Shown: in pieces, positions 10,751 to 26,523 of the stretch | Position numbering within the stretch: position 1 is the first letter of the stretch | How the letters are laid out: each line of letters begins with the position of its first letter | DNA from: Opitutales bacterium | Lineage (GTDB): Bacteria; Verrucomicrobiota; Verrucomicrobiia; Opitutales; PNEW01 | Direction of reading: 5' to 3' | Length of the DNA: 64,000 nt | Assembly (NCBI GenBank): GCA_965197745.1 | Contig: CBDANS010000006.1 | Coordinates: 128,001 to 192,000, forward strand | Position numbers and translations under genes: made by a program | The notes under the pieces: generated by a model | The model's database searches: none | What the model was told of the DNA's origin: nothing | The model's input: only the letters and a program-made list of their open reading frames with translations

Positions 10751-11452
10751 TATGGTATTGAAGCAGAAAAGGGGATAAGCTTCGCATGCTTGTGTTTTTT
10801 ATTTCCACGTTAGAATGCGAAGCCTGACCCCCTTTTACTTTTCTCTTTCCATTTAAAGTTATCCATGTCCTGGACCTGAATTATTTTTGCGATTTATTAG
10901 AATCAGTTCGATTCCATTGACTGTTCCCTTTCACTCTTAAACTCCCACTGTCAACACCACTATCCACAGGATCATGTTGGTGATCTTTAATATCACTTTT
11001 CTTAATCCTGCGGTATGCGCACAGGGCAAACAGGACATGTAGGGCGATAATTAATATCGCTCTCCTGATACCTACGGCATATATAGATATCGATGTAACA
11101 ATAAAGAGTAAGAGCAAGAATCCTACCCCTTTCCATAGGGTTCGTTCATTCACGCCGGATCCTGTTTTTGCATTGGAAAAATGTGTTGAGAGAATGTGTG
11201 CTTCATATTGTAGCAAGTGAGATGCCAAAAGATTCGCTCAGTATTCAGCATGCTAATCAACAGTCATTTATGTAAACCTTGAATATTATATTCTCTGAAA
11301 ACTAAAGATAGATCAGACATACAATGCACATTGAATTACAAACCATGCATATTTAGTGTTCACTGATTCATATACTGATACTTTGAATATAATATCAGCT
11401 AATTAGCCCATTGAAGCCTGACCCCCTTTTCCTTTTCTAGATCTATTAAAAA

Positions 11453-11481
11453 TTGACATCAGCTATTGGGGAAGTTTGAAT
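11453..11481 (+). promoter_or_regulatory. sigma70-like promoter (TTGACA-N17-TTGAAT)
   Basis: Perfect -35 box, in the same position relative to the leader RNA as at 20933 and 25176. Confidence 0.55.
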
Positions 11482-11489
11482 CTTAAAAT

Positions 11490-11593
11490 GCTTCGGTAGA
11501 GTGCACCCAGGTCCGCACGGAAAGGGCAATGCCCATCTACTAAAATTAAGGTGATCAATAATTGGTTCAGCCTAATTGCGGAATATGGCTGAA
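11490..11593 (+). ncRNA. candidate structured cis-regulatory RNA, copy 1
   Basis: P1 GGTAGA/TCTACT, hairpin GGG-CAATG-CCC, and 3' hairpin TTCAGCC/GGCTGAA whose loop TGCGGA pairs with TCCGCA at 11512. Architecture shared with copies 2 and 3. Confidence 0.7.
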
Positions 11594-11610
11594 AATATGA
11601 ACGCTAACCG

Positions 11611-12261
11611 ATGCATGAGCCCAAGCCGAATCTCTCGAATCTAAAAAAACAAGCGAAGCTTATTTTTCGACAGCATAAGGAGAGATACTATCCTGTATGC
11701 GCACGGATAAGAAAAGCGCTTCCGCGATTTTTAGATAGCAGTGATAAGGAAATACTGGACTCTTCTTTCGCATTGCATGATGCCCAGGAAATAATCGCAC
11801 GCGAATACGGATTCAATAAATGGGAAGTGCTGAAAAATAACAAAATAACCATGAATAAATCAAATTCTCAAAATAATCATAATAAATATCTATGTGAAGC
11901 ATATCCTCAGTTGTTCGTAAGTGATGTCACACGCACAGCGAACTTTTATAAAGAAAACCTTGGGTTTGAAATCCAGTATTTATATGGAAAACCTCCCTTT
12001 TATGGAATGGTGAAAAGGGATAATATAGGATTGAACATCAGGTATGTTTGCAATCCCCCCATGGATCAAAATGAAAAGGAAAAAGAACAATTAATAAGTG
12101 CCAACATTCCTGTAAATGGAGTGAAATCGCTATTTCTTGAATTCAAGGAAAAGGAAGTTGATATTTTTCAGTCGTTAAAGTCACAACCTTGGGGCTGTGT
12201 AGATTTTATCATCAAAGACCCTGACGGAAATTTATTATTATTTTCAAATCATCCTGATTAA
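11611..12261 (+). CDS. LKKQAK/AREYGF N-terminal domain fused to a VOC (glyoxalase/bleomycin resistance) domain
   Basis: N-terminal PNLSNLKKQAK...LHDAQEIIAREYGFNKW. C-terminal PQLFVSDV...FYKENLGF...QPWG..DFIIKDPDGNLL. Confidence 0.85.
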   Translation: MHEPKPNLSNLKKQAKLIFRQHKERYYPVCARIRKALPRFLDSSDKEILDSSFALHDAQEIIAREYGFNKWEVLKNNKITMNKSNSQNNHNKYLCEAYPQLFVSDVTRTANFYKENLGFEIQYLYGKPPFYGMVKRDNIGLNIRYVCNPPMDQNEKEKEQLISANIPVNGVKSLFLEFKEKEVDIFQSLKSQPWGCVDFIIKDPDGNLLLFSNHPD

Positions 12262-12340
12262 AAGACCTCACCATTCACTTGAGACGTACTGAGGCCAAAC
12301 GAAGCAGAAAAGGGTCTTAGTGCGATTTATTGTGGGTGCC

Positions 12341-13441
12341 TCATTCTTTAATATCCAGGATCCCGGCAACGGACGTTCGGATCTGAACCAGATGTTCCCG
12401 TACCCATTCAGGATTAAACCGCTCCGTCCCCATCCGGAGGGGACAACTGGCCATGGCCCCACTTATCCAGCCGATTTCCTGTGGCGCATCGCGGATCAGT
12501 AGTATGTCGTTTCCCGTCATACCGTCCGGTACCGGCCTCACTTCAGCGTAGGCATCTAGGAAGGTGCGCCAAAGCATCTTGGACCGATCCAGGTCATCCT
12601 TTATCCGTAAAATGCGACGGACCTGGGAAAGTTCGAACCCCCTTGAAATGAACCTGGCATTTCCAAAATCAAAGAACACGACAGTACCGTCAGACCGCCG
12701 CCGAATGTTCGACGGCACGAGATCATCATGACACCAGCCCATATCTTGTTCATCCCTGCCAACAAGTAGTTCACTCAATCGTCTTTTCAGTTTACGGCGG
12801 AGGTCTTGCAGTTCAGCGTAGTCTTCTTTGTAGGCAAGTCGCCTGGCAAAAGGAAGGTAATCATGCTCTTCACGAAGCACGGGATAATCCGTATCGATCA
12901 GGTCTCCTGCTGTATGTAGTTGCGCCACTGCGACGCCCAATTGACAAGATGCTTCCTCACTTACAGTAAAGCTTGTCACCGGTACTTCTTCAAACAGCAA
13001 TGCGGCACGGGATCCTTCGGGCGCGATCACTTCTGATGCGTATGACCCGTCATTTCGGTAGACCGCTGGGACGACACTTGCGCCATGAAGCGCGAGATCT
13101 GCGACGAAAAGAGCCTCGGCTTCAGCCTGATCGATGGATACTGGAGGACGGTAGATCTTCAGGTAGTAGGTGGGTCCAGCTGTGTTTACATGATAAACAT
13201 CCGAGTCACCGCGATAGTGAAAGGTGCAGCCAAGAGCTTCGGTGATATCGTACTCTGAATCAACACGCTGTAGAAGCACCTCTTCATCAAGAACTGAAGA
13301 CTGCGCTGGAAACACAGTGCGGTCATCAAGCTGGCCACTGTTTGAGATGTCGAGACCGTATCTTACGTGTCTCCCTTCAAGAACGCGTGACTTCTCAACG
13401 TCCTGCCTTGTCTCTTCTTTCTTCTTATTTTCTTTCTTCAT
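12341..13441 (-). CDS. APH/homoserine kinase type II-like phosphotransferase
   Basis: YYLKIYR, LGVAVAQLH, WCHDDLVPSN and FFDFG motifs. Confidence 0.85.
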   Translation of the reverse strand: MKKENKKKEETRQDVEKSRVLEGRHVRYGLDISNSGQLDDRTVFPAQSSVLDEEVLLQRVDSEYDITEALGCTFHYRGDSDVYHVNTAGPTYYLKIYRPPVSIDQAEAEALFVADLALHGASVVPAVYRNDGSYASEVIAPEGSRAALLFEEVPVTSFTVSEEASCQLGVAVAQLHTAGDLIDTDYPVLREEHDYLPFARRLAYKEDYAELQDLRRKLKRRLSELLVGRDEQDMGWCHDDLVPSNIRRRSDGTVVFFDFGNARFISRGFELSQVRRILRIKDDLDRSKMLWRTFLDAYAEVRPVPDGMTGNDILLIRDAPQEIGWISGAMASCPLRMGTERFNPEWVREHLVQIRTSVAGILDIKE

Positions 13442-13451
13442 TTAGTATCCT

Positions 13452-14276
13452 TTACAATTCTGCCCGCATAAAGCGTTCCCACAGTTCCTCTGCGATCCGA
13501 GAGGAATTCGTTCTTATGCCCTATCGCTGAAAGTAATCGCACAGGTTTCTAATGTCGCGCGTCAGCAACATGCAGGCACTGGAATCGACGCGGGGGTCAA
13601 CAGCCTGCGGAAAATCGATGATACGCAGTTCTCCATTATGATAGAGAATATTGTAAGCAGACAGGTCGGCATGTATCCTGTTGCAACGAAGCAGCAGTTC
13701 CACGTTGTCCATTGCCACATCATAGAGATGCAGCGCTTCTGCTTTCGAGAGAGTCACATTGCTCAACATTTGTCCCGGTCGAACACCCGTGCCTATGTAC
13801 TCCATCAGGATGATATCACCGGAATGCGCGTACGGCCTGGGCACGTTTGCGCCTTCTTCATAAAGCAATTCCATTGTTAACCACTCTCGCGCGATCCACA
13901 TGCTGTGGGCTGATCGTCTCCCGGTCCGTGATCGCCTCTTCATCGCGCGTGACAATCGCAGGTCATGAACGTTGTGGTGATCCTGATACTCCATGGCGCT
14001 GTTAAACGCTCTGAACTTTTGCGCCAGATAGACTTTGGCCGCGAGAAGATCAACTCCTACGGAAGTCCTCGCTTTACAGAGATAAACGGTTGCCTCCTTA
14101 CCGTCGTTAACCACACCGATGACCTCCGCAACCATGCCATCGAAAGACGTCAGAATAGCGTCCTTCTCACGGTCTGCTAGAAATTTTCTCTTGAATCCAC
14201 CCTCTGAGAGTGAATCACTGTCTCTTCTTCTATCATGCCGATGATTCGGCATGTTTTTCTGTTCTGATCGTGTCAT
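13452..14276 (-). CDS. RIO1-family kinase; in-frame TAG at 13521-13523 cuts off a typical C-terminal tail
   Basis: GKEATVY, AAKVY, ILMEYIG, IHADLSAYNIL and IIDFPQAVD. After the TAG the frame continues GIRTNSSRIAEELWERFMRAEL-TAA. Likely start is the ATG at 14276, because the longer start lies inside a terminator. Confidence 0.85.
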
Positions 14277-14323
14277 GCTGTATTTCCATAGTAGGTAAAA
14301 TTTAAAATTGGACCCGTGGCATG

Positions 14324-14358
14324 AAAAAAAGCCATGGGTCTGTGTCACGCCCATGGCT
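14324..14358 (-). terminator. intrinsic terminator 2 in the RIO1 leader
   Basis: AGCCATGGG/CCCATGGCT stem followed by a T-run on the minus strand. Confidence 0.75.
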
Positions 14359-14365
14359 TGGATCA

Positions 14366-14398
14366 GAAAAAGAAAAAGCCGTTCCAGGCGGAACGGCT
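14366..14398 (-). terminator. intrinsic terminator 1 in the RIO1 leader
   Basis: AGCCGTTCC/GGAACGGCT stem followed by TTTTCTTTTT on the minus strand. Confidence 0.8.
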
Positions 14399-14428
14399 AA
14401 ACTGCTCTTGATAGCACCCTGGTGCTAC

Positions 14429-14488
14429 CTAGTGCCGAAACCTACCGGGGAGTGACAACGCGAAGAATTGTCTCTTTGCTGCATTCAT
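14429..14488 (-). CDS. putative leader peptide MNAAKRQFFALSLPGRFRH (19 aa)
   Basis: Strong RBS AAGGAGAG, an ATG...TAG frame, followed immediately by hairpins and terminators. Confidence 0.65.
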   Translation of the reverse strand: MNAAKRQFFALSLPGRFRH

Positions 14489-14596
14489 GATTATCTCTCC
14501 TTTATTGGTGTAGGTTTCGGGTTCCTGGTTAATGTTCATAATGCTTTATGTGATCGATGTATCGATGTCAATAAAGATCCCTTGCGACAATCTTCA

Positions 14597-14699
14597 CGGA
14601 CGTGACGACGCGCGTCCCTCCATTTTTTTTTCGGGGGGCCATGTAATGTCTGTCGGCCATAGCCGCGCGTTTGCGGGGCGACGGCTGATCGTGGCCGCG
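14597..14699. repeat. GGAGG-type REP doublet with nested insert
   Basis: Diverged copy of 9006-9110. Confidence 0.8.
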
Positions 14700-14750
14700 A
14701 AAGAGTATAGAAACATAAAGGGGCTACGACAGGTTTACACCTGAGATGAG

Positions 14751-15508
14751 CTAATTATCTTCGACAGGTTTAAATTCAAAGAAAAAAGGTTGGTAAGCAC
14801 GTGCTGTAACCGGTTTACCGCGTTTCATTGGTGGTTGAAATTTCCAGTCTTTGATCGCGGTGAGTGCGGCAATCGCAAAATAGTCATTCGATGAAGATTT
14901 AAGCCCCGGGGCTCTGACGTTACCCTTGGAATCAATAAAAAATTCAACCAGTACCTGCCCGCTTGCTTCCACATCCCACATTTCTTTCGGAAAAACAGGT
15001 GAACTCGATTTAATTACTTTTGGTTCAAAATCCAATTCGTTAATATCTTTAACCGTAAAATATTGTCTATTTATCGTTTTATTACCGATCATCGCTTCAT
15101 CAATGATTGATGCATTGAATATACACCTCCACCTCTCTCCAAATTGTAAGATACTTTAACAAATACTCGACTCGAGTAAGCCACTCCATCGACAATTCTT
15201 GGAGCAAATTTCCATTGCTTAATCGCTCTAATCGAGGAACGGGCAAAAGCAAGGTGAGAGGTTGCAAATTCTACAAAATCATACTGTTGTCCCGTGTCAT
15301 CGACGATAAATACGATAATCGCAAATCCTTCAGTAATACCTGTATGGGCAACACTCGGTGGTAAATAAGGATTAACTGCTTTAAGCACCTGCAGGTCTCG
15401 ATTATTATTATCAGTCTTTTCGCTTTGACCCAACACGGGGAGATGAAAGCAAAAAATTATCAAAATAAAAATGAGGTGGGAGGGGAATAATCTGTAATAG
15501 GATTTCAC
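14751..15508 (-). pseudogene. TonB family protein with two TonB_C domains, split into two ORFs (probable frameshift near 15090-15130)
   Basis: Signal peptide, AIKQWKFAP and AIKDWKFQPP. The ORFs overlap by 4 nt, so two translationally coupled genes is also possible. Confidence 0.65.
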
Positions 15509-15628
15509 GGATAAAATACAGGGTTAAAACATAATCTAAGTTAATATCTTTAAATACACAACCCATGGCACGTTATAGTTCCACGATTGCAGAGCGACCG
15601 CGGCTGACCCCTTTTGGGCAATCATTAC

Positions 15629-15729
15629 CGGACGCGACGAAGCGCGTCCCTCCATTTTTTTTCGGAGGGCCACGTAATGCCTGTCGGCCATAGCCGCGCG
15701 TTTGCGGGGCGACGGCTGATCGTGGCCGC
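15629..15729. repeat. GGAGG-type REP doublet with nested insert
   Basis: Near-identical to 9006-9110. Confidence 0.85.
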
Positions 15730-15837
15730 TGATTTACAATTTTATAAATGGACAATAACAAAAGAAAGCAGCCACGATGTCACCTATTAGCTCATAGCTC
15801 TTGCTTAATCATGATGGACGCATAACAATAAAAATTT

Positions 15838-16161
15838 ATGCCTGCATTACGCAATCGATTAGAAAACGAATTAAGAAAACTGGAGGGGGTTGACGTTGCA
15901 TTGTATAAAGATACGAATCTGATGTGTGTCTATTATGGAGGCAAAGAATTTGCGCATTTTCAAGACGACAACGATTTGGATATACGATTATCTCAGAAAT
16001 TTATAAAACGAGAAAGCCTTACTCCTATTCATGATTCCAAATATCATCCGAATCGTTCAAGGAAATCCAGGTGGATGGAAATACGGTTTAAGAATGCAAA
16101 GCAAGTGGATGACTTGATTCGACTTATTAAGCGACTGATAAAAGAAGAATTAGCGCTATAA
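15838..16161 (+). CDS. DUF5519/luciferase-like small protein
   Basis: GKEFAHF....LDIRL and ...RWMEIRF pattern. Confidence 0.65.
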   Translation: MPALRNRLENELRKLEGVDVALYKDTNLMCVYYGGKEFAHFQDDNDLDIRLSQKFIKRESLTPIHDSKYHPNRSRKSRWMEIRFKNAKQVDDLIRLIKRLIKEELAL

Positions 16162-16192
16162 GTAAAACACTCAGGAATTATGGGGGAAAAAA

Positions 16193-17632
16193 ATGTCCAA
16201 AAAAAATATCATGCTGATCATTTCGGACCAGCAACGCACGGACACCATCGGCTGTCTCAGTCTCACCCCTTGCCGCACTCCCCATATAGATGCATTAATT
16301 GATCGCGGGGTTATTTTCGAGAAGACCATCACCCCCACCCCCGTCTGCACCCCGGCGCGGGCTTCCATCTTTACCGGTCTCTACGCCCATCAAGCGAGGG
16401 GAACCTTTGCCAAAGATCACATCGGTCCTCTCCGCGATGACCAGATGACTTCCGATGCGACAGACATGCTGCTCAGCGATTACTCCTGTCGAGAAAAACC
16501 GTTGCTCACTGACGCACTTAAAGCAGCAGGTTATTACTGTTGCTATGCGGGCAAATGGCATCTCGGCAACGATATTTTTGATAACTGGTTTGAACACCAC
16601 CACGGCGAGACAGACCAGCAGTATATTGATTGGGCCAGCGAGCAGGGGTATCCGGACGCCTGGTCTTTAAGCGATTGGTCGGTTCGCAGTCACCGTGATC
16701 CACCGATGTCTATTCCCCTGGCAAAAGAAAATAAAATTCCTCCCGAGATTACTAACGACGCGTGGATCGCTGACCTTGCCATCGATATGATTGAACAGCG
16801 CCCGAAAGATAAACCCTTCATGGCTGTCTGCAGTATGATCGGACCTCACCCGCCATTCAAGATACCGGAACCGTATTTCAGCATGTATGACGACCAGGAG
16901 GTTCCCGAGCCCCCCAATTTCCACCTCACTGAAGGAAAACCAAAATGCAAGAAAGAGAGTTTCTATCACAAACTGTGGGAGGACCATGGCTCGGATTGGT
17001 CGGCGTGGGAAAAATCCGTGACGACTTACTGGGGATTTGTCACCCATATCGACGACCAGGTCGGACGTCTTGTCCAATGCCTCAAGGACGAGGACGTTTT
17101 TGAGGACACCCTCATTATTTTCTGTAGCGACCATGGCGAAATGCTGGGCCAGCATGGTCTGTGGCACAAAATGCAGGCATATGAGGAGTCGCTTCGCGTG
17201 CCGCTGGTTTTCAGCGCGCCATGGATCAAATGCGATAACCGTTCAACCGCGCTTAACTCGCTGATCGATATTGCCCCGACAATTCTTGGCGCTGCCGGCT
17301 GTTCGATTCCGGATACTTACGAGGGCGAGGACTTATCGGCGCTATTCAACGGGCAGTGTGACCGGACCGCTCGAAGCGTCCTCTTCAGCGAGCACAAACC
17401 GGATGGAGATTATCACCTCGAGACTGATTGGAGAATGGTGACGGACAATAAGATTAAGTACATCTGGAATCGGGGTGAGTGCGAAGAGCTTTACGATCTG
17501 GAATCAGATCCCTGGGAAAAGGTTAATCTAGCTGACAACGATCGGAATAACGAACAATTGGCCTTCTATCGAACCCAACTCGGTGAGTGGATGGAGAAAA
17601 CGAAAGACCCCCTGCACGAGAGTTTTAAATGA
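16193..17632 (+). CDS. formylglycine-dependent sulfatase
   Basis: NIMLIISDQQR, CTPARAS, GKWHL, PHPP and SDHGE motifs. Confidence 0.95.
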   Translation: MSKKNIMLIISDQQRTDTIGCLSLTPCRTPHIDALIDRGVIFEKTITPTPVCTPARASIFTGLYAHQARGTFAKDHIGPLRDDQMTSDATDMLLSDYSCREKPLLTDALKAAGYYCCYAGKWHLGNDIFDNWFEHHHGETDQQYIDWASEQGYPDAWSLSDWSVRSHRDPPMSIPLAKENKIPPEITNDAWIADLAIDMIEQRPKDKPFMAVCSMIGPHPPFKIPEPYFSMYDDQEVPEPPNFHLTEGKPKCKKESFYHKLWEDHGSDWSAWEKSVTTYWGFVTHIDDQVGRLVQCLKDEDVFEDTLIIFCSDHGEMLGQHGLWHKMQAYEESLRVPLVFSAPWIKCDNRSTALNSLIDIAPTILGAAGCSIPDTYEGEDLSALFNGQCDRTARSVLFSEHKPDGDYHLETDWRMVTDNKIKYIWNRGECEELYDLESDPWEKVNLADNDRNNEQLAFYRTQLGEWMEKTKDPLHESFK

Positions 17633-18300
17633 CCCGTTTTTGATTTTCATTGTGAGGTCCCGGATTTTTTAGCTTCGCCGCAACATTTATACTTAAATGT
17701 CGATGTGGAATGACTTATGTCGCCATTAGACAACTGATAGATTTTGAGTTTGAACTGATATTTGATAAATAAATACCAGTTAATTTACTCACTATCTATA
17801 ATACTGAATCTCTACACGCTCACCACAGGTATGAAGAGCATAATTATAATCGAAGATGACCAAAGCTACCGTTCCATGTTATGCGGAGCGCTGGAAGATG
17901 AGGGATATAAAGTATCTACAGCTGAAAATGGCCTAATAGCGATAGATGTTCTCAAGACATTAACGCCTGATCTTATAATTACCGATGTCATAATGCAAGG
18001 AATGGATGGTTTTGAAGTAATCACACAAGTAAAGAATCAGAATCCTGATATTAAAATTATTGCCATTAGCGGAGGTGGAATGGCTGGACCTAAAACATAT
18101 TTAGAAATCGCTGAAGATTTAGGTGCAGATTACACGATTACAAAACCGTCAACGTTAAAAGAATTTCTAAGTGCAGTGAACAAACTGCTTAAATAAAATG
18201 GAAGAGGTTAATACCGAAATAGCATGAAGCGAATATGTAAGTGAATGAGAAAACGAAAGACCCTTGCACGAGCGTTTTAAATGACCCGATTCTGAATTTC
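17583..18300 (+). repeat. ~65 bp imperfect direct repeat (17583-17648 and 18237-18300) flanking a response regulator
   Basis: agaaaacgaaagaccc(c/t)tgcacgag(a/c)gttttaaatgacccg occurs in both. Confidence 0.85.
17831..18196 (+). CDS. single-domain response regulator (CheY-like receiver)
   Basis: IIEDD, DLIITDVIMQGMDG, IIAISGG and KP motifs. Confidence 0.9.
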   Translation: MKSIIIIEDDQSYRSMLCGALEDEGYKVSTAENGLIAIDVLKTLTPDLIITDVIMQGMDGFEVITQVKNQNPDIKIIAISGGGMAGPKTYLEIAEDLGADYTITKPSTLKEFLSAVNKLLK

Positions 18301-18308
18301 TTATAAAG

Positions 18309-19109
18309 TCATGTGACTTTAACTTTCCTCCACCATTCTCCTTCAGCCCCTTCAGGAATGTATGGCGGTATTGACATTATTAATCGGTTCTCATCTACAA
18401 ATTTAATGTGAAATGACTCGTGCTTGCGTGTTTCGTAACCAGGAACCTGAGACAAGAATGGCCAGTTGTCAAAAGTAGATGGAGTCTCAAGCCGCGCTCC
18501 AACGTTCACACCGAATTCATTAAATAATTTATAAATCTCTGTATCACTAAAACTGACACCTTGTGATGGTGCTCTTGGGCGTTCAGTACCCGCTCTCATT
18601 ACACCGTAGTGCCCTTGAGTCACAAGAGACATCCATCGTCCGTGTTTATCTTCAGATTCCCAAGCACCAGCCAGGGGTGTATCACCAGCTCCGCTGAGCT
18701 TTCGCCAGTTTTCCTCAACAATCTTGCCATCAGGAAACGCTCGCTTGCATAAACAATGATTATCCTGAAAATTTACAGTATATGAAAGCGAGATTCCTTC
18801 GATGCGTGGATCACTGGCCATTTCAATATTATGCTCTGCCAACCATCCTTCCTCTAACTCAGTCCACGAACAGCTCCCTCCTATTGCGTAAAAGTGTGGA
18901 TACATTTCGACCGCTTCGGCCTCAGTGGGAGGCCAAGTTGCTGGCGGTTGACACTTTCCCTGGGTAAGAAGTTCAATAAAATGATCCCCTGTGTACACGG
19001 AGAAACCTGCCGCAGATCTGATAGCAACTGTTGTATCCCGTAATGGCACGAAATCCACATCTTCATCATCAGTGAGCATCTGCCAAAAACCATTCCATGG
19101 TTGTTTCAT
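18309..19109 (-). CDS. hypothetical protein with two internally similar lipocalin-like halves
   Basis: WNGFWQM versus LAGAWES, with parallel downstream segments. Confidence 0.6.
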   Translation of the reverse strand: MKQPWNGFWQMLTDDEDVDFVPLRDTTVAIRSAAGFSVYTGDHFIELLTQGKCQPPATWPPTEAEAVEMYPHFYAIGGSCSWTELEEGWLAEHNIEMASDPRIEGISLSYTVNFQDNHCLCKRAFPDGKIVEENWRKLSGAGDTPLAGAWESEDKHGRWMSLVTQGHYGVMRAGTERPRAPSQGVSFSDTEIYKLFNEFGVNVGARLETPSTFDNWPFLSQVPGYETRKHESFHIKFVDENRLIMSIPPYIPEGAEGEWWRKVKVT

Positions 19110-19217
19110 ATCTTTGGATCCTATTTATGTTTCTCTACCTAAAATACTCAATTTATGAATATGTGAAAAGTCGAGAAATGTCACTGTAAGTTGATATGCC
19201 GCGCAGAAGAACTGGAA

Positions 19218-19278
19218 GGGGTCAGGCTTTGCAAACTGGCATTTTTTAATTATATGCCAGTTTGCAGAACCTGACCCC
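19218..19278. repeat. GGGTCAG...CTGACCC palindrome (REPIN-like), copy 1
   Basis: 61-bp near-perfect palindrome with a TGCAAACTGGCAT core. Confidence 0.85.
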
Positions 19279-19284
19279 ATTTTT

Positions 19285-20700
19285 TCACTCGGCATACCCA
19301 TGATAGTTTGCGATCGCCAGGCCGGCGGCAATGCCGGTGAAGGTATCGAATTCAATCAGCTTTCGAGGGAATATTTGCTGCAACAGTTCTTGAACGGGTG
19401 GAAGCTTCGAAGAGCCACCGGTGCAGATCACTGCGTCGATTCCATCAACGCTGCAACCTGACGATAAGAGCAGTTCCTCAATCGCATCACTGATCCTCGC
19501 CAACATCTCTTCCATGTATTGGCGCAACTCCTGTCGGGTGATGGTCACTCGGAGCTCGAGCTCGGGCACCCGGATGACGGATTCATGATCCTTGGTGAGC
19601 CCGATCTTGGCCTCCTCTATGGCCTGAAAGACCCTGTAGGATTGGTTCATAGAGATCAATAGCAGCAATCGACTTAGTTTCTGCTTCGTCTTCCCTTTTT
19701 CACGCATACCATGGGTGATCAATTCTCTGAGTTCACCCCGGTTGAGTTCGTGTGTATGCTGCCAGATGAGCAGCCGTTCGGCGAATTCCCCGAATCGAAA
19801 CGCTACCTTCTTTTCATCGCCGACACTCTTGCTTGTAATCAATGTTCGCTCGCCCAGTTCCGGGAATATGGCTCTCCGGTATATCAGCTTATCGATATCA
19901 TCCCCGCCCAGTTCGAGTCCCAGCGTGCCCAGAATCTTGAATGCCTTCGTGGTTGTCTTCAAAAGGCAAAGGTCAAGCGTGCCCCCGCCAAAGTCGAAGG
20001 TCAGATAGGATCTGTCGGGGCGCGTTTCGCCCCGATGCAGGAAGCTCAGAGAGGCTGCGACCGGCTCCGGATAAAAGGAAGCTTTCGAGAATCCTGCGAA
20101 ATCACACGCTTCTCCCATTCGGCTTAACGCGACCTCATTCGCTGTTGCCGAATCCCCGCGATAATTAACCGGTCGACCCACATGCGGCGTAAGCAGCGGG
20201 CCGCCCGCATGGGTCTCGATCCCCTTGCGGATCTCTTCCAGAATTGGGGTCGCGAGTGCCACCACGCGCAGGGTCCTGTCGAATACGTTGATGGCATTCA
20301 GCGAAGCATCCCCAAGCCATGTCTTGATACTTCGAAAAAGCCGGCTCGGGAGATGTGAATCGGTAAATGCGTGCACCTTAACCCAGTCCTCAAAGTAACC
20401 TGCCATGGTATCTATGCTCAAAAGAAATTCACCCACCTCTTCCTTCTCTAATTGAATCCTCCTTCCTCTGTTGTCCTCGAGATAGGATTCTATCGCATGC
20501 TGTCCGACACGGGGGAAAAAGTCGCGGTTGAGATACAATGCGCTCGGCAGTACTGCGGGAACGGCGGCAGCGGCGTCCAGGCCGAGCATCCGAAGTTTTT
20601 TTCCGTCAAATAGCGCAACCGATGAATTCGTCGTACCAAAATCAACGCCCACTGCTATTCTGCTCGAGCTGCGGTGAAGATGGGAAGGGCTTAAGGGCAT
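19285..20700 (-). CDS. Hsp70-family protein (YegD-like)
   Basis: GVDFGTTNS, VGRPVNY, EPVAA, FDFGGGTLD and TGGSS. Lacks the substrate-binding lid. Confidence 0.85.
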   Translation of the reverse strand: MPLSPSHLHRSSSRIAVGVDFGTTNSSVALFDGKKLRMLGLDAAAAVPAVLPSALYLNRDFFPRVGQHAIESYLEDNRGRRIQLEKEEVGEFLLSIDTMAGYFEDWVKVHAFTDSHLPSRLFRSIKTWLGDASLNAINVFDRTLRVVALATPILEEIRKGIETHAGGPLLTPHVGRPVNYRGDSATANEVALSRMGEACDFAGFSKASFYPEPVAASLSFLHRGETRPDRSYLTFDFGGGTLDLCLLKTTTKAFKILGTLGLELGGDDIDKLIYRRAIFPELGERTLITSKSVGDEKKVAFRFGEFAERLLIWQHTHELNRGELRELITHGMREKGKTKQKLSRLLLLISMNQSYRVFQAIEEAKIGLTKDHESVIRVPELELRVTITRQELRQYMEEMLARISDAIEELLLSSGCSVDGIDAVICTGGSSKLPPVQELLQQIFPRKLIEFDTFTGIAAGLAIANYHGYAE

Positions 20701-20932
20701 GCGGGTAAAAGATTAGGTGGCGCCAACTGTCCTGAAAACAGAGGGATTAACCTATACAAGCTTTTGGCCGCTATTGTTCAAGAATAAAATTACATAAATA
20801 TTTTACAACCAACCTCTTATAAATTAATACTAACATCGAAAAACAATCATGTCAAGTTCTGACTTGGCCCTATTTGTCGCATGCACACAGTGAAAAATGA
20901 AAAGAGAATCAAAACGCGGTCTGATCAATCAC

Positions 20933-20960
20933 TTGACAAAGAACGGTATCGGGTTAACTT
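20933..20960 (+). promoter_or_regulatory. sigma70-like promoter (TTGACA-N16-TAACTT)
   Basis: Near-identical to 25176-25203. Confidence 0.7.
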
Positions 20961-20971
20961 TTTTCATAGAC

Positions 20972-21074
20972 GCTCGGAGGGAGCGGCCAGTCCACGGAAA
21001 GAGTTAACCTCACCTCTCTCGAATCCATACAGTCAATTGGACCTATGGACCAGCTTGTCAGGTGGACAACAAGC
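20972..21074 (+). ncRNA. candidate structured cis-regulatory RNA, copy 2
   Basis: P1 GGAGG/CCTCT, hairpin GAG-TTAAC-CTC, TCCATA/TATGGA hairpin, and GCTTGT/ACAAGC hairpin whose loop GTGGAC pairs with GTCCAC at 20990. Confidence 0.75.
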
Positions 21075-21097
21075 GCAAATTGGAAAGTAGGTTATAT

Positions 21098-22936
21098 ATG
21101 AAGCAGTCGATTGCTGCAAAAGCAAATCTGGACCAGCTGAAGAAGCAGGCCAAAACGCTGATCAAAGCGTTTAATTCGAATGACACCGAGGCGGCCGCAC
21201 GCCTCGCGGCGACACATCCCCGCTTAACCGGCCTGGATGTAACGGAAGTTCTGAAACAGAAGCTCGCCCTTAATGACGCACAATGGGTTATCGCCCGTGA
21301 GCATGGATTCAAAGATTGGACGGAACTCAAACATGAAAAACTCCGAGCTGAGTACTTTGAAGCCGCTCATCGTGGTGATACCGCACTACTCCGGAAACAG
21401 ATTAAATGCTGGCCGGATTTGATCCAAAAAAAGATGGAAAACGGGCTCAGTGCTCTTCATCTATCCATTGTCTCCGGCCATGCCGACGCTGTTCGGTTCT
21501 TACTCGAATGCGGAGCAAATCCAACAAACGGGTATGGGTATGGTCAAGGAACGCGTTCAACAACTCCGCTGCAACTGGCTAGAGATGCTGAACATGCAGA
21601 AGTAATTACTGTTATTGAAGACTAGCTGAAACACAGGGTTGAGGCCACGACGTTGGAGACACCGTTGATTACGGCCGTTGAAAATAAAGACTTCGAAACC
21701 GTCAGGAAGTTGCTGACCGAGCATCCTGAGAGTGTCAATGAAATCAACGAACGAGGTGGAACTGCTCTCATCCGGGCTTCGCATCTTAACGATCTGGAAT
21801 GTGTGCAACTGTTGCTCGATAAAGGAGCGGACGCCGCGTATCTTTCACCCAATCCGGTGGCCGCCGATTTTTTGCGCAACGGCCACGCCGCTATCCATCG
21901 GGTGGTCCATCACCGATGTCAGGATCAGGAGAAAAGTAGGACGATTCTACGCATGCATCTCGATCATGGAGCGCCCTATGACCATGAAATCGCTGTATGG
22001 ATGGGCGACCTCGACACCGTCATTGAAAAGACCGGGAATAACAATAAGCGAAAGGATGAAGCGCTCATTGCCGCGGCGTAAGTGGGTGAACTGCCCATCA
22101 TTCGCTGGCTCCTGGATCACGGAGTGGATCCCAACACTCCGCGGGACATCGATATTGGCGATTCGATCTTTCACGAGGAAGCAGCAGCTGTCTGGGAAGC
22201 AGCGGCCCAAGGTCACATTGAAGTGGTTCGCGAACTGCTTGCTCGCGGAGCAAAGCCTAACGAGGTCCTCTACGCAAGCGGCTGGCCGGTAACAATCGCA
22301 GATACATACGGGCATACCGACGTCAAAGAGCTGCTTATCGCGCACGGGGCGCCGCCTCCGATTGATTGGTATGAAGATTCGTTGGAGGATATAAAGAACA
22401 AGCTACCCATGCAGATGGAAAAACTCCATGAAGATTGGGCCATGCCTATCGCTGGCCGCACCGGCCGCGTTGATCTGGTCGAATACCTGCTGAGTCTTGA
22501 TCCCCGGATCGATGACGAGATGTGGACAAAGTGTCTGCAATATACCTTGTACGCTATATCTCCGAATAGTCCACAAATACTCAGTTTGCTTATCGACCAC
22601 AGGGCGAATCCAAACGCAATTAACGAACAGGGCGAGTCCGTTCTGCATTACTTATGTATGCACCATTCTCGCGAGAATCCAGCCAAAGTTGAGAACGCCC
22701 GTATGTTGGTCGAAAAAGGCGCTAAAATCAACGTCCTCGATCATGTTAAGAAGTCGACACCACTCGGCTACGCCACCCGTGAAGGCGAATACGATTTGGC
22801 CAGGGTATTCCTTGAACTGGGTGCCGATCCTAACCTCGGTGGTGAAGATTGGGCGCACCCGTTACGCTGGGCAGAGAAAAAAGGCCATAAGAAGATCGCT
22901 GAACTATTAAAGGCACACGGTGCCATTATTGAGTAA
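21098..22936 (+). pseudogene. LKKQAK/AREHGF N-terminal domain + ankyrin repeats, with in-frame TAG (21623) and TAA (22079)
   Basis: Three ORFs in one frame. ANLDQLKKQAK...LNDAQWVIAREHGFKDW followed by multiple TPL/GADPN ankyrin motifs. Confidence 0.85.
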
Positions 22937-22956
22937 TCATAAGGGTGATCTGAAAA

Positions 22957-23015
22957 GGGTCGGGCGATGCAAACTGGCATATATTTAAAAAATACCAGTT
23001 TGCAGAACCCGACCC
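22957..23015. repeat. GGGTCRG...CYGACCC palindrome, copy 2
   Basis: Same family as 19218-19278, with a compensatory change in the arms. Confidence 0.85.
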
Positions 23016-23040
23016 TTTTTGATTTCTTCGAGTAAAAGAT

Positions 23041-23436
23041 ATGAAAAATCTCAAAGCAATTATGCCGTTCTTCGTCGTTGAGAACGTTTCAGAAACTATT
23101 GAATTCTATACCGGCAAGCTGGGATTCAACATATCTTTTCAACAGACACTTGATGGAGATGATACACCATCATTTTGCATTCTTAATCGTGATGAGATCT
23201 CAATTATATTTAAGCGTATCGGAATGGGGATTACAGCTACACCCAACTCGATGAACCACGAGTGGGCCAGGTGGGATGCCTACATTGTAACTGAAGATCC
23301 GGACGCACTTTTCGAAGAATTAAAGGATAAAGGAGTGAATTTTCATCGTGAATTGGAAAACACCGAAGATGGGTTAAGGGCTTTTGAAGTTCGAGACAAC
23401 AACGGATATGTATTATGTTTCGCGCGATTGCTCTAG
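23041..23436 (+). CDS. VOC (glyoxalase/bleomycin resistance) protein
   Basis: PFFVVENV...FYTGKLGF...GLRAFEVRDNNGYVLCF. Confidence 0.85.
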   Translation: MKNLKAIMPFFVVENVSETIEFYTGKLGFNISFQQTLDGDDTPSFCILNRDEISIIFKRIGMGITATPNSMNHEWARWDAYIVTEDPDALFEELKDKGVNFHRELENTEDGLRAFEVRDNNGYVLCFARLL

Positions 23437-23689
23437 TATGAATATCTCGGTTAATTACCGCGTTACCTGTTTGATGTATGACATTATAAGAATCGAGAAA
23501 TCGAAACGGGTCTACGCGAGATAATCTGAATAACGCGTTTATAAAATCTATTGCTCCGATCGTTTAATAGCGCATTATTCAAAATCGGTTGTGCACCTAC
23601 TCACAATACTTTATTGGTACGCGAGACTGGTTGGAGATCATTCGAAAAGTAAGAATTGTTGAAATGACTTCAAAAAACCCACCCTATTA

Positions 23690-24709
23690 ATGAGCTTGCG
23701 AGTGAGTATAGATGAGGTGCTCGCATATCGTTACCGAGCTAACCATCTCGATAAACGACTAAAAGCTGGTTCAGAACCTTTCGCTGCACGTGCGGGGTTG
23801 CAAGACAGTGGACCTCGTGCTGGTGTAATATCCCTGCATGCCCGTGTTAATGGTGTCACAGCCTCTTTATGGGAACAGCCAGACATGGCTCAGGTATGGG
23901 GTCCACGTGGTGCGATCTACATTGTGCCGCGCAATGATATAGCCGTCTTCACACTTGGTCAGCTGCCTCGGGATTCTGGTTCTCTAAAGTTGATAGAAAA
24001 AGCGGTTGCTTCGATTAAAAAAATATTAGCTGGCCGCACCCTACGAAAATCTGAGGTGCTTTCCAGATTTCGTTCTCTGAATCTTGGTGTAGACTTTTTA
24101 CCAGCCGGAAAAACTGGATCTATCCTTCCTCGCTGGGATGCTCGTGATACTCTTATACGCGCTGTCGATGCACCTGACGCAGATATTGAAGAGTGTAGAA
24201 TCGAATTGGCCCGCCGGTTTTTTCATTATTTAGGTCCATCCACATTGAAGGGTCTCAAGCAGTGGGCAGGTATTTCGCGAGAGGATGCCCAGATGACATT
24301 CTCATCTTTATCCAACGAACTGTTGAACATAGAAGTTGACGGGCACAAAGCGTGGTGTCTTGAGTCGGATGTGGACGATCTCAACAAACCACGTGCTAAA
24401 AGAGGGGTTAGATTACTTCCTGCGGATGATCCGTATTTAAATTACCGGACTGCAAAAGAATTTCTTGTGCCTGAACATAAATTTCAATTGCAGCTTTGGC
24501 CGAAAGCTCCTCCTCCTGGAGCTTTGCTTGTCGATGGTATTATCTCGGGCATATGGAGAAGGAATCAATGGCATTTTGTCTTTAAACCGTGGAGAAAAAA
24601 AATTTCTAATAACGTAGCTGACGCCGTAACCGAAGAAATATCTCGATTTCCACTTCAGGGAGATCCGACTAAGGCGAGAGTGGAGTGGTTATCACCATTG
24701 AAGAGGTGA
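23690..24709 (+). CDS. AlkZ/YcaQ-like DNA crosslink glycosylase family (HTH_42)
   Basis: GLQD, SLHARV, WGPRGAIY, RRFFHYLGP, VRLLPADDPY and LVDGIISGIW. Confidence 0.8.
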   Translation: MSLRVSIDEVLAYRYRANHLDKRLKAGSEPFAARAGLQDSGPRAGVISLHARVNGVTASLWEQPDMAQVWGPRGAIYIVPRNDIAVFTLGQLPRDSGSLKLIEKAVASIKKILAGRTLRKSEVLSRFRSLNLGVDFLPAGKTGSILPRWDARDTLIRAVDAPDADIEECRIELARRFFHYLGPSTLKGLKQWAGISREDAQMTFSSLSNELLNIEVDGHKAWCLESDVDDLNKPRAKRGVRLLPADDPYLNYRTAKEFLVPEHKFQLQLWPKAPPPGALLVDGIISGIWRRNQWHFVFKPWRKKISNNVADAVTEEISRFPLQGDPTKARVEWLSPLKR

Positions 24710-24772
24710 ATTGTTTAAAATATATTATAGAAAATAACCCTAATCCAATATTGTTAGAAGAAGGAGTTGATT

Positions 24773-25141
24773 ATGAAAATCACTGAATTCGCATTTGTAG
24801 GACATCCAGTAGAGAGTATGAAGCGTGCGCAGAAATTTTACGAAGAAGTGCTCCGACTTCCACCACCAAAAGTCCTCGGTAAAGGATGGTTTGAATACGA
24901 AATAGGCCCCTACACTCTCGCTATCACTACTGCGTGGTCTGATAATAAACCACCTGAACGACCAAGTTGTGGACTTGCTCTTGAAGTCGAAGACTTTGAC
25001 GAAGCTATCTAGCATATTAAGGACTGCGGTGTTAGCTTTGATATTGAACCTGCCGAGTACGAGTATTGTTATAGTGCGGTCATTACGGATCCCGATGGCA
25101 ATCAGTTCGGTATTCATAAGAGAAAACCAGGTAAATGTTAA
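24773..25141 (+). pseudogene. VOC family protein with an in-frame TAG at 25010-25012
   Basis: AAGGAG RBS. After the TAG the frame continues HIKDCGV...ITDPDGNQFGIHKRK. Confidence 0.85.
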
Positions 25142-25175
25142 ATCATCGCGATATAATAGGAGTCCGTTCAATAAC

Positions 25176-25203
25176 TTGACAAAGAACGGCATCCGGTTAA
25201 CCT
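25176..25203 (+). promoter_or_regulatory. sigma70-like promoter (TTGACA-N16-TAACCT)
   Basis: Near-identical to 20933-20960. Confidence 0.7.
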
Positions 25204-25214
25204 TTATGATAGTT

Positions 25215-25310
25215 GCTCAGAGGGAGCCTCCCAGTCCGCGGTAAGGGTTTAACCCACCTTTAGAAGAAGTCTATCAACCTTCTTTCTGCCTGCAACTGCG
25301 GACACCAGGC
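25215..25310 (+). ncRNA. candidate structured cis-regulatory RNA, copy 3
   Basis: P1 AGAGG/CCTTT, hairpin GGG-TTTAA-CCC, AGAAGAAG/CTTCTTTCT hairpin, and GCCTG/CAGGC hairpin whose loop CTGCGGAC pairs with GTCCGCGG at 25234. Confidence 0.75.
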
Positions 25311-25332
25311 GCAATAATAGAGAGGAGGTCGT

Positions 25333-26523
25333 ATGACCAGGAAGTTACCAGAGAAAGCCAATCTTGAGCATCTCAAGAAACAGGCAAAGCAGTTATTAAA
25401 AGACCACAAAGCAGGTGAGCAACAGGCCTGCAATCGTATCAGGGAATATCATCTCCGACTGTCCAAATTACCGGAAAAGGACATCCCCGGTGCTGAATTC
25501 TCCTTGCAAGATGCACAACTCACGGTCGCGCGCGAGTACGGTTTTTCCAGTTGGCCAAAAATGGTTTCCGCGATTAAATCGACTGATAAGCGGAAGCTAA
25601 TATTTAATGCTTCTAATCGTGGAGATCTCGATGAAGTCAAAAGACTGATTAAATCTTACAGCTTCGCGAAAGGGGAACTGGACGAAGCTTTATGTCGTGC
25701 CACATGTAATATGCGGGGTGATAAGGAGTCAGATTTTCGCGCTTGCGCGGATTACCTCATTGACCGTGGTGCAGACGTCAATGCTGAGAGTGAGGATAAC
25801 TACGGCCGTATTATTCTCGGATCGTGTGAATTCCTAAATCCTGTAGGACTGAAATACTTAATTGATCATGGGGCTATAGTGAATGTGCCTGAGCGCATAA
25901 CCAAGTACCCTGCTAATAATACGCCATTGAATATGGTGCTGGGTACATATTCTCGTAAACCAGCTGAGAAACACCGATGTCTCGACCTGCTCATAGAAGC
26001 CGGGGCCCACTACGAGGATGGCCCGGTTATGGATATCCACATGGGACGCGATGATAATCTTAAAGAACGACTGAATATGAATTCTCATTTGCTGCATGCT
26101 CAATTCGATCTCAATTACGGTAATTATCTAACGCTTTTCGGAGTGAGCTTATTACATATCGCAGCTGAGTATATTGAGAAAGCGTGTGTCGATGTCCTCC
26201 TTGATCATGGAGCGGATATAGATGAGAAAGCAATAATCGGAAAGAATGGCGTGGGTGGACAAACACCTATTTACCATGTAATCGGGGGCAACCAGGGTAA
26301 ATGCTACCCGTTGTTTGAACACCTGATGGAGAAGGGACCTGATCTAACCGTGAAAGCCTATATTCAAGGGAATGTCGTTATTAACCATGAAAAGGATCTT
26401 GCTTACGACGAGGTGCTGGAGCTGTCCCCTTTAGGCTATGCCCTGAGGTACGAGCACGAACCTACATGGCGTGAAGCATCTCGGGAAGCAGCGAAACTAC
26501 GTGAACTCGGCGCGCCGATGTAA
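25333..26523 (+). CDS. LKKQAK/AREYGF N-terminal domain + ankyrin repeats
   Basis: GGAGG RBS. LPEKANLEHLKKQAK...LQDAQLTVAREYGFSSW, followed by GADVNA, TPLN and SLLHIAAE motifs. Confidence 0.9.
   Translation: MTRKLPEKANLEHLKKQAKQLLKDHKAGEQQACNRIREYHLRLSKLPEKDIPGAEFSLQDAQLTVAREYGFSSWPKMVSAIKSTDKRKLIFNASNRGDLDEVKRLIKSYSFAKGELDEALCRATCNMRGDKESDFRACADYLIDRGADVNAESEDNYGRIILGSCEFLNPVGLKYLIDHGAIVNVPERITKYPANNTPLNMVLGTYSRKPAEKHRCLDLLIEAGAHYEDGPVMDIHMGRDDNLKERLNMNSHLLHAQFDLNYGNYLTLFGVSLLHIAAEYIEKACVDVLLDHGADIDEKAIIGKNGVGGQTPIYHVIGGNQGKCYPLFEHLMEKGPDLTVKAYIQGNVVINHEKDLAYDEVLELSPLGYALRYEHEPTWREASREAAKLRELGAPM

Follow-up and report, generated by a model that had tools for sequence, protein, structure and literature searches.

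The described systems closest to the one reported here are, as generally understood, the rpsO (S15) leader of E. coli and similar operators on one side, and the SAM-II and preQ1-II riboswitches on the other. In rpsO-type operators a pseudoknotted 5' leader lies over the ribosome-binding site of the gene or operon of its binding protein, the RNA is exclusive to one protein family, and the regulator may be encoded behind another gene of its operon. The SAM-II and preQ1-II riboswitches have an H-type pseudoknot, a Shine-Dalgarno (SD) sequence within the conserved fold and no separate two-state platform. A third point of reference is the yjdF motif, which PMC4793209 presents as an orphan riboswitch candidate almost exclusive to one gene family. 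These traits recur in a family of leader RNAs found in a stretch of 64,000 nucleotides (nt) from an Opitutales bacterium (contig CBDANS010000006.1, positions 128,001 to 192,000; "the window" below), where three leaders precede three genes that share one N-terminal protein domain, the presumed binder and regulator. The leaders belong to a widespread class of cis-acting 5' leader RNA, supported by covariation and double-pseudoknotted, with the SD inside the fold, and their association with the N-terminal domain is near-exclusive, regardless of what follows the domain in the protein.

With respect to Rfam and the searchable literature, what is new is the RNA family with its fold and its dedicated link to one domain; the kind of element, a leader that sequesters the SD, is known. 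A scan of the whole window with Rfam 15 (4227 models) gave no match at the gathering score, which agrees with the preliminary description of this DNA, where no named family had been recognised in the leaders. There was no match at E <= 10 in 11300-11800, and the only ones in 20800-25500 were chance matches of the miRNA and snoRNA type (E 0.3-3) on an unrelated hairpin at 22931-23039. Twenty motif-bearing loci from other phyla gave no match at E <= 1. The motifs of one large motif-discovery study are reportedly included in Rfam. No such motif is mentioned in the literature searched, including the large motif-discovery papers PMC11109978, PMC8632094 and PMC5737381 (main text).

Structure and covariation of the leader RNA

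The full architecture was first revealed by a strict regular expression over loci outside the window, which were collected as described in the next section. The RNA class is about 130 nt long and has six helices, P0, P1, PK, P2, P3 and P4. In its typical sequence it begins with P0 (GCGC/GCGC, 4 base pairs, bp), whose loop of 5-7 nt is the source of the 5' strand of P1 (e.g. CAGG). A conserved, unpaired linker, AUCC(R), leads to the 5' strand of PK, (G)GUCCGC, which has the P4 loop as its partner, and to a conserved, unpaired core, GGRAA. P2 follows (GGGC-NRA-GCCC, 4 bp with a 3-nt loop), then an A and the strand CCUG, which completes P1. After a variable, unconserved linker of 14-36 nt comes the 5' strand of P3, an anti-SD (e.g. 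AAUCUUCUUUC) that pairs with the SD region. P4 (GCCUG ... CAGGC) carries the 3' strand of PK, GCGGAC(C), in its loop, and is separated by 6-9 nt from the 3' strand of P3 (e.g. GAAAGGAGAUU), which has the SD inside and the start codon 4-9 nt further on. P3 (11 bp) thus encloses the hairpin P4, and the P4 loop pairs back to the 5' core through PK. Since P0 crosses P1, P1 crosses PK, and PK crosses both P3 and P4, the RNA is a double pseudoknot. The register of P0 is shifted by 1 nt in part of the family.

Covariation was first evaluated in a plain MAFFT alignment of 25 sequences, fitted to no structure. There, 85.0% of the cells were paired, compared with 39.7-45.1% when the partners were slid, both sides had changed in 25 of the 36 pairs, and none of 500 shuffles matched the observed values. 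Two covariance models were used for the larger alignments: R1, which holds P1, P2, P3 and P4, and R2, which holds P0, P2, P3 and P4. In the R1-fitted alignment of 78 rows PK, which is outside that model, was 91.9% paired, and 6 of its 7 pairs had changed on both sides. The R2-fitted alignment has 82 rows, from which seven near-duplicate loci and four repeat loci were excluded, and both P1 and PK are outside its model. It had 90.3% of the cells paired, compared with 40.9-47.6% for slid partners, with both sides changed in 33 of the 36 pairs. By helix, the paired cells and the pairs changed on both sides in these 82 rows were 82.0% and 3/4 for P0, 87.8% and 5/5 for P1, 91.4% and 6/7 for PK, 99.7% and 4/4 for P2, 87.1% and 10/11 for P3, and 97.2% and 5/5 for P4. 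When the register of P0 was allowed to float, all four pairs formed in 70 of 80 distinct rows, with 18 strand combinations, compared with 23% when the 5' strand was set against a differing 3' strand from another row. All six helices covary, so the structured leader with compensatory changes, pseudoknot included, that had been proposed from three copies holds for the family.

Two other approaches were of no use. MAFFT run on trimmed leaders misaligned the SD strand, and that alignment was discarded. Folding of single leaders to the minimum free energy (MFE) gave unremarkable energies (z -0.08, -0.09 and -1.14); single-sequence folding is uninformative for a pseudoknotted leader of this type, because the MFE structure takes PK as a nested stem.

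Most of the helices drawn in the preliminary description are seen in the sequence and covary in the 82 sequences: P1 (GGTAGA/TCTACT, GGAGG/CCTCT and AGAGG/CCTTT in the three copies), the 3' hairpin now called P4, and the pseudoknot between its loop and the core (TCCGCA/TGCGGA, GTCCAC/GTGGAC and GTCCGC/GCGGAC). The inner hairpin, P2, likewise exists and covaries, and only its geometry had to be revised, the family consensus being 4 bp with a 3-nt loop and not 3 bp with a 5-nt loop. Two other features were redrawn. GCTY and GWGC, taken for conserved linkers, are really the two strands of helix P0, whose loop is the P1 5' strand (an H-type pseudoknot), and the motif, said to end 17-23 nt before the start codon, instead reaches the SD region through the 11-bp P3.

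Some RNAs depart from this consensus. In three Acidobacteriota loci (L105, L106 and L108) a variant subclass is distinguished by an extended P0, with CAAAAGAGG as its core and ACCCGC/GCGGGU as its pseudoknot, and precedes a divergent domain subfamily (K19A, Q62L, R67V, Y69N). The RNA core and the protein surface may have changed together here, in what is a single lineage. Taken as evidence for coevolution of RNA core and protein residues, L102 and L105/106/108 on the one hand and L100 on the other are anecdotal and conflicting, and no conclusion was drawn. Five RNAs consist of the 5' half only, that is the P0/P1/P2 core without P3, P4 and PK: L053 and L093 precede domain genes, and L112, L119 and L146, which have no domain open reading frame (ORF) downstream, are perhaps remnants, or else the 5' half has a use of its own there. 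One metagenome contig (L187) carries two leaders back to back, at 346-509 (-) and 573-717 (+).

Association of the leader with the N-terminal domain

An alignment of the five domains of this genome led to 527 confirmed relatives in contigs from one genome per species, and the best 80 of the 527 were kept. These 80 homolog loci span 11 phyla: Verrucomicrobiota, Acidobacteriota, Latescibacterota, Planctomycetota, Chloroflexota, Dormiibacterota, Gemmatimonadota, Poribacteria, Pseudomonadota, Actinomycetota (Kribbella) and Lentisphaerota (Victivallales), where the phylum of some named taxa is presumed. In 73 of the 80 external loci an RNA detected with R1 ends at the start of the ORF. Seventy-two of these score 57-114 bits, and the 73rd is the 5'-half-only variant L053, at 13 bits. 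The seven loci without RNA directly upstream encode stand-alone domain proteins of about 90-136 amino acids (aa) from Latescibacterota and Gemmatimonadota, and in six of them the RNA lies about 1.04 kb upstream, L042 being outside this test. In L096 (Latescibacterota), the only such case inspected, the RNA is followed by an ORF of 339 aa and then by the stand-alone domain gene of 136 aa. The 339-aa protein is hydrophobic in an N-terminal segment and has two weakly SnoaL/DUF4440-like (NTF2-like) regions, and this operon form (leader, 339-aa protein, domain protein) was listed for L096 and five related genomes.

The same association was found when whole genomes were searched from the RNA side. 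Five other genomes gave 15 RNA matches, 12 of them directly before domain ORFs detected with the hidden Markov model (HMM) and one of the operon type. The remaining two precede a short domain variant recognised by eye (L092) and an ankyrin ORF (L099). In a sample of 151 Verrucomicrobiota genomes (RNA at E <= 0.001, domain at E <= 1e-5) both RNA and domain were present in the same six genomes, and neither was in the other 145. All 18 RNA matches in this sample precede a domain ORF, 16 by HMM and two by eye, the latter being short variants that retain helix 1 and the last two helices. The sample of 151 Acidobacteriota genomes yielded 15 RNA matches, spread over 13 genomes, and 20 domain matches, spread over 17. 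Thirteen of these RNAs adjoin HMM-detected domains, one adjoins a short variant and one lies at a contig end. Six Acidobacteriota domain genes had no RNA match in the genome search. With the filters off, a divergent RNA was found immediately in front of two of the six (24.4 and 25.8 bits), and two others have a variant RNA that is visible by eye only, at scores that are not significant (8.9 and 9.1 bits); the last two are L102 and L107.

In a reverse test, a 25-nt pattern made from the RNA core only was run over metagenome contigs, which gave at least 120 matching stretches, and 80 loci were fetched. Among the matches listed, 72 loci had at least 330 nt downstream, and 69 of these encode the domain 93-182 nt past the pattern. 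The three exceptions carry the 5' half of the RNA only and no domain ORF. Altogether the RNA occurs essentially never without the domain, and the domain occasionally occurs without the RNA. Confinement to the leaders of domain genes or operons, which is the mark of an operator, is what was found, with L099 and the three 5'-half-only RNAs as exceptions. The preliminary description had proposed that leader and N-terminal domain are tightly coupled and had looked to homologs in other phyla for the motif; the coupling holds from the RNA side and from the protein side, and the motif is there in the 73 external loci, in both genome samples and in the metagenomes.

The N-terminal domain and its fusion partners

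The domain is about 75 aa long, and an AlphaFold2 model of it has five helices, with a mean predicted local distance difference test (pLDDT) score of 84.8. L11, L14, K15, A18, K19, A66 and W74 are invariant, and Q17 is 98% conserved. The last two helices and the Gly-containing loop between them (AREYGFxSWxKL) may resemble the helix-extended-loop-helix motifs that bind nucleic acids. The family is large, with 9,158 representative clusters (50% identity) at E <= 0.001 and 4,353 at E <= 1e-10. In 146 of the best 150 among the 9,158 representatives the domain begins no later than residue 19, and matches in two or three stretches are common. A word-indexed protein search returned 26 proteins only.

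A short form of the domain, without the middle helices, occurs in L100, L101 and L092, still with a full leader (99, 42 and 78 bits). What it retains, helix 1 (LKKQAK) together with the final two helices (AQ..A+EYGF.W), sets the bounds of a minimal conserved core.

No Pfam or NCBIfam family matches the domain at threshold. Profile positions 4-55 of PF20066 (Glyoxalase_8) weakly match the domain in 24 of 48 members (best E 0.0044), all of these matches being below the curated cut-off of 23.7 bits (13.0 bits for the first member), and the two VOC-type proteins of the window receive no PF20066 assignment. These weak matches indicate that Pfam holds the domain only as the head of a fusion between it and a glyoxalase fold. 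The ESM Atlas returned only clusters named 'hypothetical protein', and PADLOC gave nothing for the domain.

The C-terminal parts were surveyed in 60 of the 80 loci, after the seven stand-alone forms and 13 near-duplicates were dropped. Ankyrin repeats are by far the most common partner (41 of the 60), followed by BFN nuclease (2) and by LON_substr_bdg, VOC/glyoxalase, FliG_C and AAA_lid_14 (1 each), and in 13 loci the C-terminal part available had no Pfam match. In one protein, P0008, which is an RtcR/PspF-like sigma54 AAA+ protein, the domain is in the sensor position, and a further architecture joins the domain to TPR and TonB_C. The RNA thus tracks the domain and not the C-terminal function.

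Ribosome-binding site and promoter

The SD lies within P3, and the mean energy of the anti-SD:SD duplex is -11.0 kcal/mol. What would be looked for in a riboswitch or in an operator is therefore present, namely a covarying structure in the 5' untranslated region and an SD that is occluded by P3, the predicted expression platform. No conserved pairing that would release the anti-SD was found: across 80 sequences the linker against the anti-SD had a mean z of +0.27, with z < -1 in 8%. An alternative 'ON' hairpin between linker and anti-SD appeared in copies 2 and 3 of the window only (z -2.8 and -3.7) and was rejected as a conserved feature. With no conserved 'ON' hairpin, regulation would stabilise or destabilise one fold and would not switch between two states. 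The + strand of the three window leaders showed no terminator-like site.

In 41 of 82 distinct upstream regions the sequence TTGAC starts 35-41 nt upstream of P0, and elsewhere within 70 nt it was seen 3 times only. This peak, together with a 17-nt spacer and a -10 hexamer, suggests that transcription starts at or just before P0. The preliminary description had placed a TTGACA promoter before each copy. The hexamers are there and agree with the family-wide peak, while a sigma-70 scan called no + strand promoter at any of the three window leaders, which we attribute to their weak -10 hexamers.

How the leaders may regulate

As the most likely mechanism we tentatively propose that the domain acts as an autogenous repressor of translation. 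It is suggested because the association tracks the domain and not the function of the protein, because the operon form puts the domain gene second behind a regulated leader, and because the domain is strictly N-terminal and the leader has no two-state platform. The invariant K15 and K19, the 98% conserved Q17 and a mean net charge of +3 also speak for it. The transcript probably begins at P0 or a few nt from it, and the RNA folds into the P0/P1 H-type pseudoknot, P2, P3 and P4, with PK joining P4 to the core. The folded state buries the ribosome-binding site and so limits the initiation of translation. Under the proposed mechanism the domain would bind the conserved single-stranded core and the pseudoknot of its own leader and stabilise the fold that sequesters the SD, possibly while still nascent and tethered near its own mRNA. 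Promoter, leader and domain would together be a portable, self-limiting expression cassette joined to many C-terminal effectors. That this cassette is self-contained, with the nascent domain binding in cis, across at least eight kinds of effector and at least 11 phyla, is conceivable and somewhat doubtful.

Several observations weigh against repression by the domain. No RNA-binding fold was recognised in the domain model: Foldseek found nothing in the PDB at E <= 0.001 (best 3.7), the VIA fold comparison found no chain at Z 5 (best 4.0, DUF1244), a sequence profile search of the PDB found no relative, only de novo designs or CiPC (E >= 0.013), and the Pfam matches other than that to PF20066 were likewise weak (OST-HTH in 6 of 48 members, ELP3_N in 3 of 48). 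The net charge of the domain, although positive on average, ranges from -3 to +8. At L099 the ankyrin ORF has no recognisable domain, and the core of its RNA is degenerate. L102, with a bona fide domain, and L107, with a weak domain match, have no leader. At L100 the protein behind a canonical RNA (99 bits) has K15R and Q17T, and therefore the invariant residues are not strictly required for the RNA to be retained. The covariance models contain about 10 nt of coding sequence, which the metagenome pattern does not. Finally, an unpaired core conserved across 11 phyla within a double pseudoknot has the look of a small-molecule aptamer.

That last point leads to the strongest rival, a new riboswitch for a small molecule or ion, which we consider a serious possibility even if a less than even one. 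The ligand would bind the double-pseudoknot core and stabilise the SD-sequestering fold, turning translation off, and the N-terminal domain would have its place in the physiological pathway concerned, for instance as another sensor of this ligand. A compact, multi-pseudoknotted fold with conserved unpaired AUCC and CGGRAAG in 11 phyla and with the SD inside would suit such an element. The position of the domain in the sigma54 AAA+ activator P0008 would too, since it could be a ligand-sensing module there, and some orphan candidates are tied nearly exclusively to one gene family, the yjdF motif being an example (PMC4793209). However, the downstream genes share no metabolic or transport theme, their C-terminal parts being ankyrin, VOC, nuclease, Lon-N, FliG_C and AAA+. 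With the exception of L099, no full RNA stands before a gene without the domain in the 5 + 15 + 18 + 15 genome matches and the 72 metagenome loci. There is also no conserved alternative pairing of the kind that two-state platforms have, although riboswitches with the SD in the aptamer likewise have none.

It is unlikely that the leaders answer to a shared trans factor, such as a global RNA-binding protein or a small RNA, or to a physical signal such as temperature, with the domain genes forming one regulon and the domain itself staying off the RNA. Near-identical cores in several paralogs per genome (5 in genome G000, 8 in G085) do resemble a regulon, and G-U pairs are frequent in P3 (UG at pair 115/193 in 38 of 82), a trait that some RNA thermometers share. 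Against this, the presence of the RNA matches that of the domain exactly at the level of genomes (the same 6 of 151), no separate conserved factor came to light, although no search was aimed at one, and a double pseudoknot with an invariant core is far more elaborate than thermometers are known to be. Quite improbable is a stable ribonucleoprotein of RNA and domain in which the RNA controls the activity of the protein, in the manner of an antitoxin or chaperone, and translational control is secondary. The strict co-occurrence of RNA and domain and the BFN nuclease among the fusion partners would fit it, but the SD-containing P3 covaries within the motif, which points to translational control, and there is one RNA copy per gene and no tandem repeat like that of ToxI. 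Although copies 2 and 3 share a near-identical promoter spacer, as a recent duplication in this genome would leave it, a non-functional leader that is a leftover of gene duplication or a product of chance has next to no probability, given 33 of 36 pairs that change on both sides with pairing kept across 11 phyla, no match in 500 shuffles and slid controls that are only 41-48% paired.

The leaders and genes of the window

The covariance models match the window at 11483-11621, 20963-21108 and 25206-25343 (R1: 64.7, 82.1 and 109.3 bits) and at no further place in its 64 kb, and tblastn finds the domain in the three downstream genes and in no others there, both as the preliminary description had it. 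The genome as a whole (4.45 Mb, 7 contigs; the window is C6:128001-192000) has exactly five domain genes in a tblastn search with the three N-terminal domains as queries. The covariance-model search of the genome likewise gave five RNA matches, which correspond to the five domain genes and no others, and the number of copies in this genome is accordingly five where three had been counted. The two domain genes outside the window are both on contig C7 and both have the same type of leader, one of them with a fully compensated pseudoknot (GACUCAC/GUGAGUC, compared with GUCCGC/GCGGAC). The features of the window are collected in Table 1.

Table 1. Leader RNAs, domain genes and candidate promoter elements, in window coordinates.
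Feature	Position	Strand	Score, evidence or remark
Candidate -35 of leader 1, TTGACA	11453..11458	+	fits family TTGAC peak; not called by sigma-70 scan
Leader RNA copy 1, most divergent copy	11489..11610	+	R1 64.7 bits, R2 47.3 bits
Gene 1, N-terminal domain + VOC/glyoxalase domain, 216 aa	11611..12261	+	
Candidate -35 of leader 2, TTGACA	20933..20938	+	fits family TTGAC peak; not called by sigma-70 scan
Leader RNA copy 2	20969..21097	+	R1 82.1 bits, R2 73.8 bits
Copy 2, P0	20972-20975/20981-20984	+	
Copy 2, P1 5' strand	20976-20980	+	
Copy 2, PK 5' strand GUCCAC	20990-20995	+	
Gene 2, N-terminal domain + ankyrin repeats	21098..22936	+	frame interrupted
Candidate -35 of leader 3, TTGACA	25176..25181	+	fits family TTGAC peak; not called by sigma-70 scan
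Leader RNA copy 3, best fit to the family model	25212..25332	+	R1 109.3 bits, R2 106.6 bits
Copy 3, P0 hairpin, GCUC (25215-25218) / GAGC (25224-25227)	25215..25227	+	sequence, covariation
Copy 3, P0 loop AGAGG = P1 5' strand	25219-25223	+	
Copy 3, PK 5' strand GUCCGC	25234..25239	+	partner GCGGAC 25298-25303
Copy 3, P2 hairpin, GGGU / ACCC, then A	25245-25248/25252-25255	+	sequence, covariation
Copy 3, P1 3' strand CCUUU	25257-25261	+	sequence, covariation
Copy 3, P3 anti-SD strand ACCUUCUUUCU	25277..25287	+	11 bp with 25319-25329, read from sequence
Copy 3, P4 hairpin, GCCUG (25288-25292) / CAGGC (25306-25310)	25288..25310	+	loop holds PK 3' strand 25298-25303
Copy 3, P3 SD strand AGAGAGGAGGU	25319..25329	+	start codon 25333
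Gene 3, N-terminal domain (residues 1 to ~80) + ankyrin repeats, 396 aa	25333..26523	+	

Copy 1 has P3 and P4 fused into a single stem of 7 bp and a weak SD, with an anti-SD:SD duplex of only -3.0 kcal/mol. It also has an insertion of 2 nt, and for that reason escaped the first genome pattern. Gene 2 is one frame of 613 codons that two in-frame stop codons break, TAG (21623-21625) and TAA (22079-22081), the latter inside an ankyrin repeat, so that the intact ORF comprises the first 175 aa only. The gene is probably decaying, or cut down to 175 aa, while its leader stays intact (82 bits).

The promoter spacers of copies 2 and 3 (20933-20958 and 25176-25201) are almost identical, TTGACAAAGAACGGYATCSGGTTAAC, and their likeness far exceeds that of the leaders downstream, which could reflect a recent duplication or a common operator site. 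The long, near-perfect hairpin at 22931-23039, just past the end of gene 2, probably serves as a terminator. Between copies 2 and 3 there are also a stand-alone VOC/glyoxalase gene (23041-23436) and a gene for an AlkZ-like DNA glycosylase (23690-24709). These VOC and AlkZ-like neighbours, with the BFN-nuclease fusions elsewhere, hint at a connection with responses to genotoxins or to nucleic-acid damage. Adjoining gene 1, on the - strand at 12341-14354, are an APH-type phosphotransferase gene and a RIO-domain kinase gene.

Significance and comparison with known systems

If confirmed, the leaders add to the structured cis-regulatory RNAs a widespread class absent from Rfam, with two interlocked pseudoknots and a built-in helix that sequesters the SD. 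Its carriers include poorly studied soil and aquatic phyla (Acidobacteriota, Verrucomicrobiota, Planctomycetota, Latescibacterota and others) as well as culturable Paraburkholderia, and the association offers a first functional handle on a large domain family that has no Pfam model of its own. Either outcome would be useful: a new riboswitch with an unknown ligand, or a new RNA-binding domain with an operator that travels by domain shuffling. Were the cassette reading true, it would mean autogenous translational control at the level of a domain, spread by domain shuffling, and a new RNA-binding protein fold with its cognate RNA.

Among known systems, a ToxIN-like type III toxin-antitoxin arrangement is the most distant, since here each gene has one RNA, which contains the gene's own SD. 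On the protein side, the domain family differs from Glyoxalase_8 (PF20066) in that most of its members are ankyrin fusions. In contrast to rpsO-type operators, no ribosomal protein is involved whose rRNA site the leader could imitate, and the presumed partner is an unannotated N-terminal domain found on many unrelated effectors. The leader is conserved over 11 phyla and has no Rfam match. Compared with SAM-II and preQ1-II, the RNA is larger, has two interlocked pseudoknots and matches no riboswitch in Rfam, and its downstream genes share a protein domain and not a metabolic theme. The yjdF motif (PMC4793209) is alike in being a conserved structured leader that stands almost only before one protein family of unknown function. 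The two RNAs are unrelated, and the partner of the leaders described here is the N-terminal domain of multi-domain proteins whose C-terminal parts vary.

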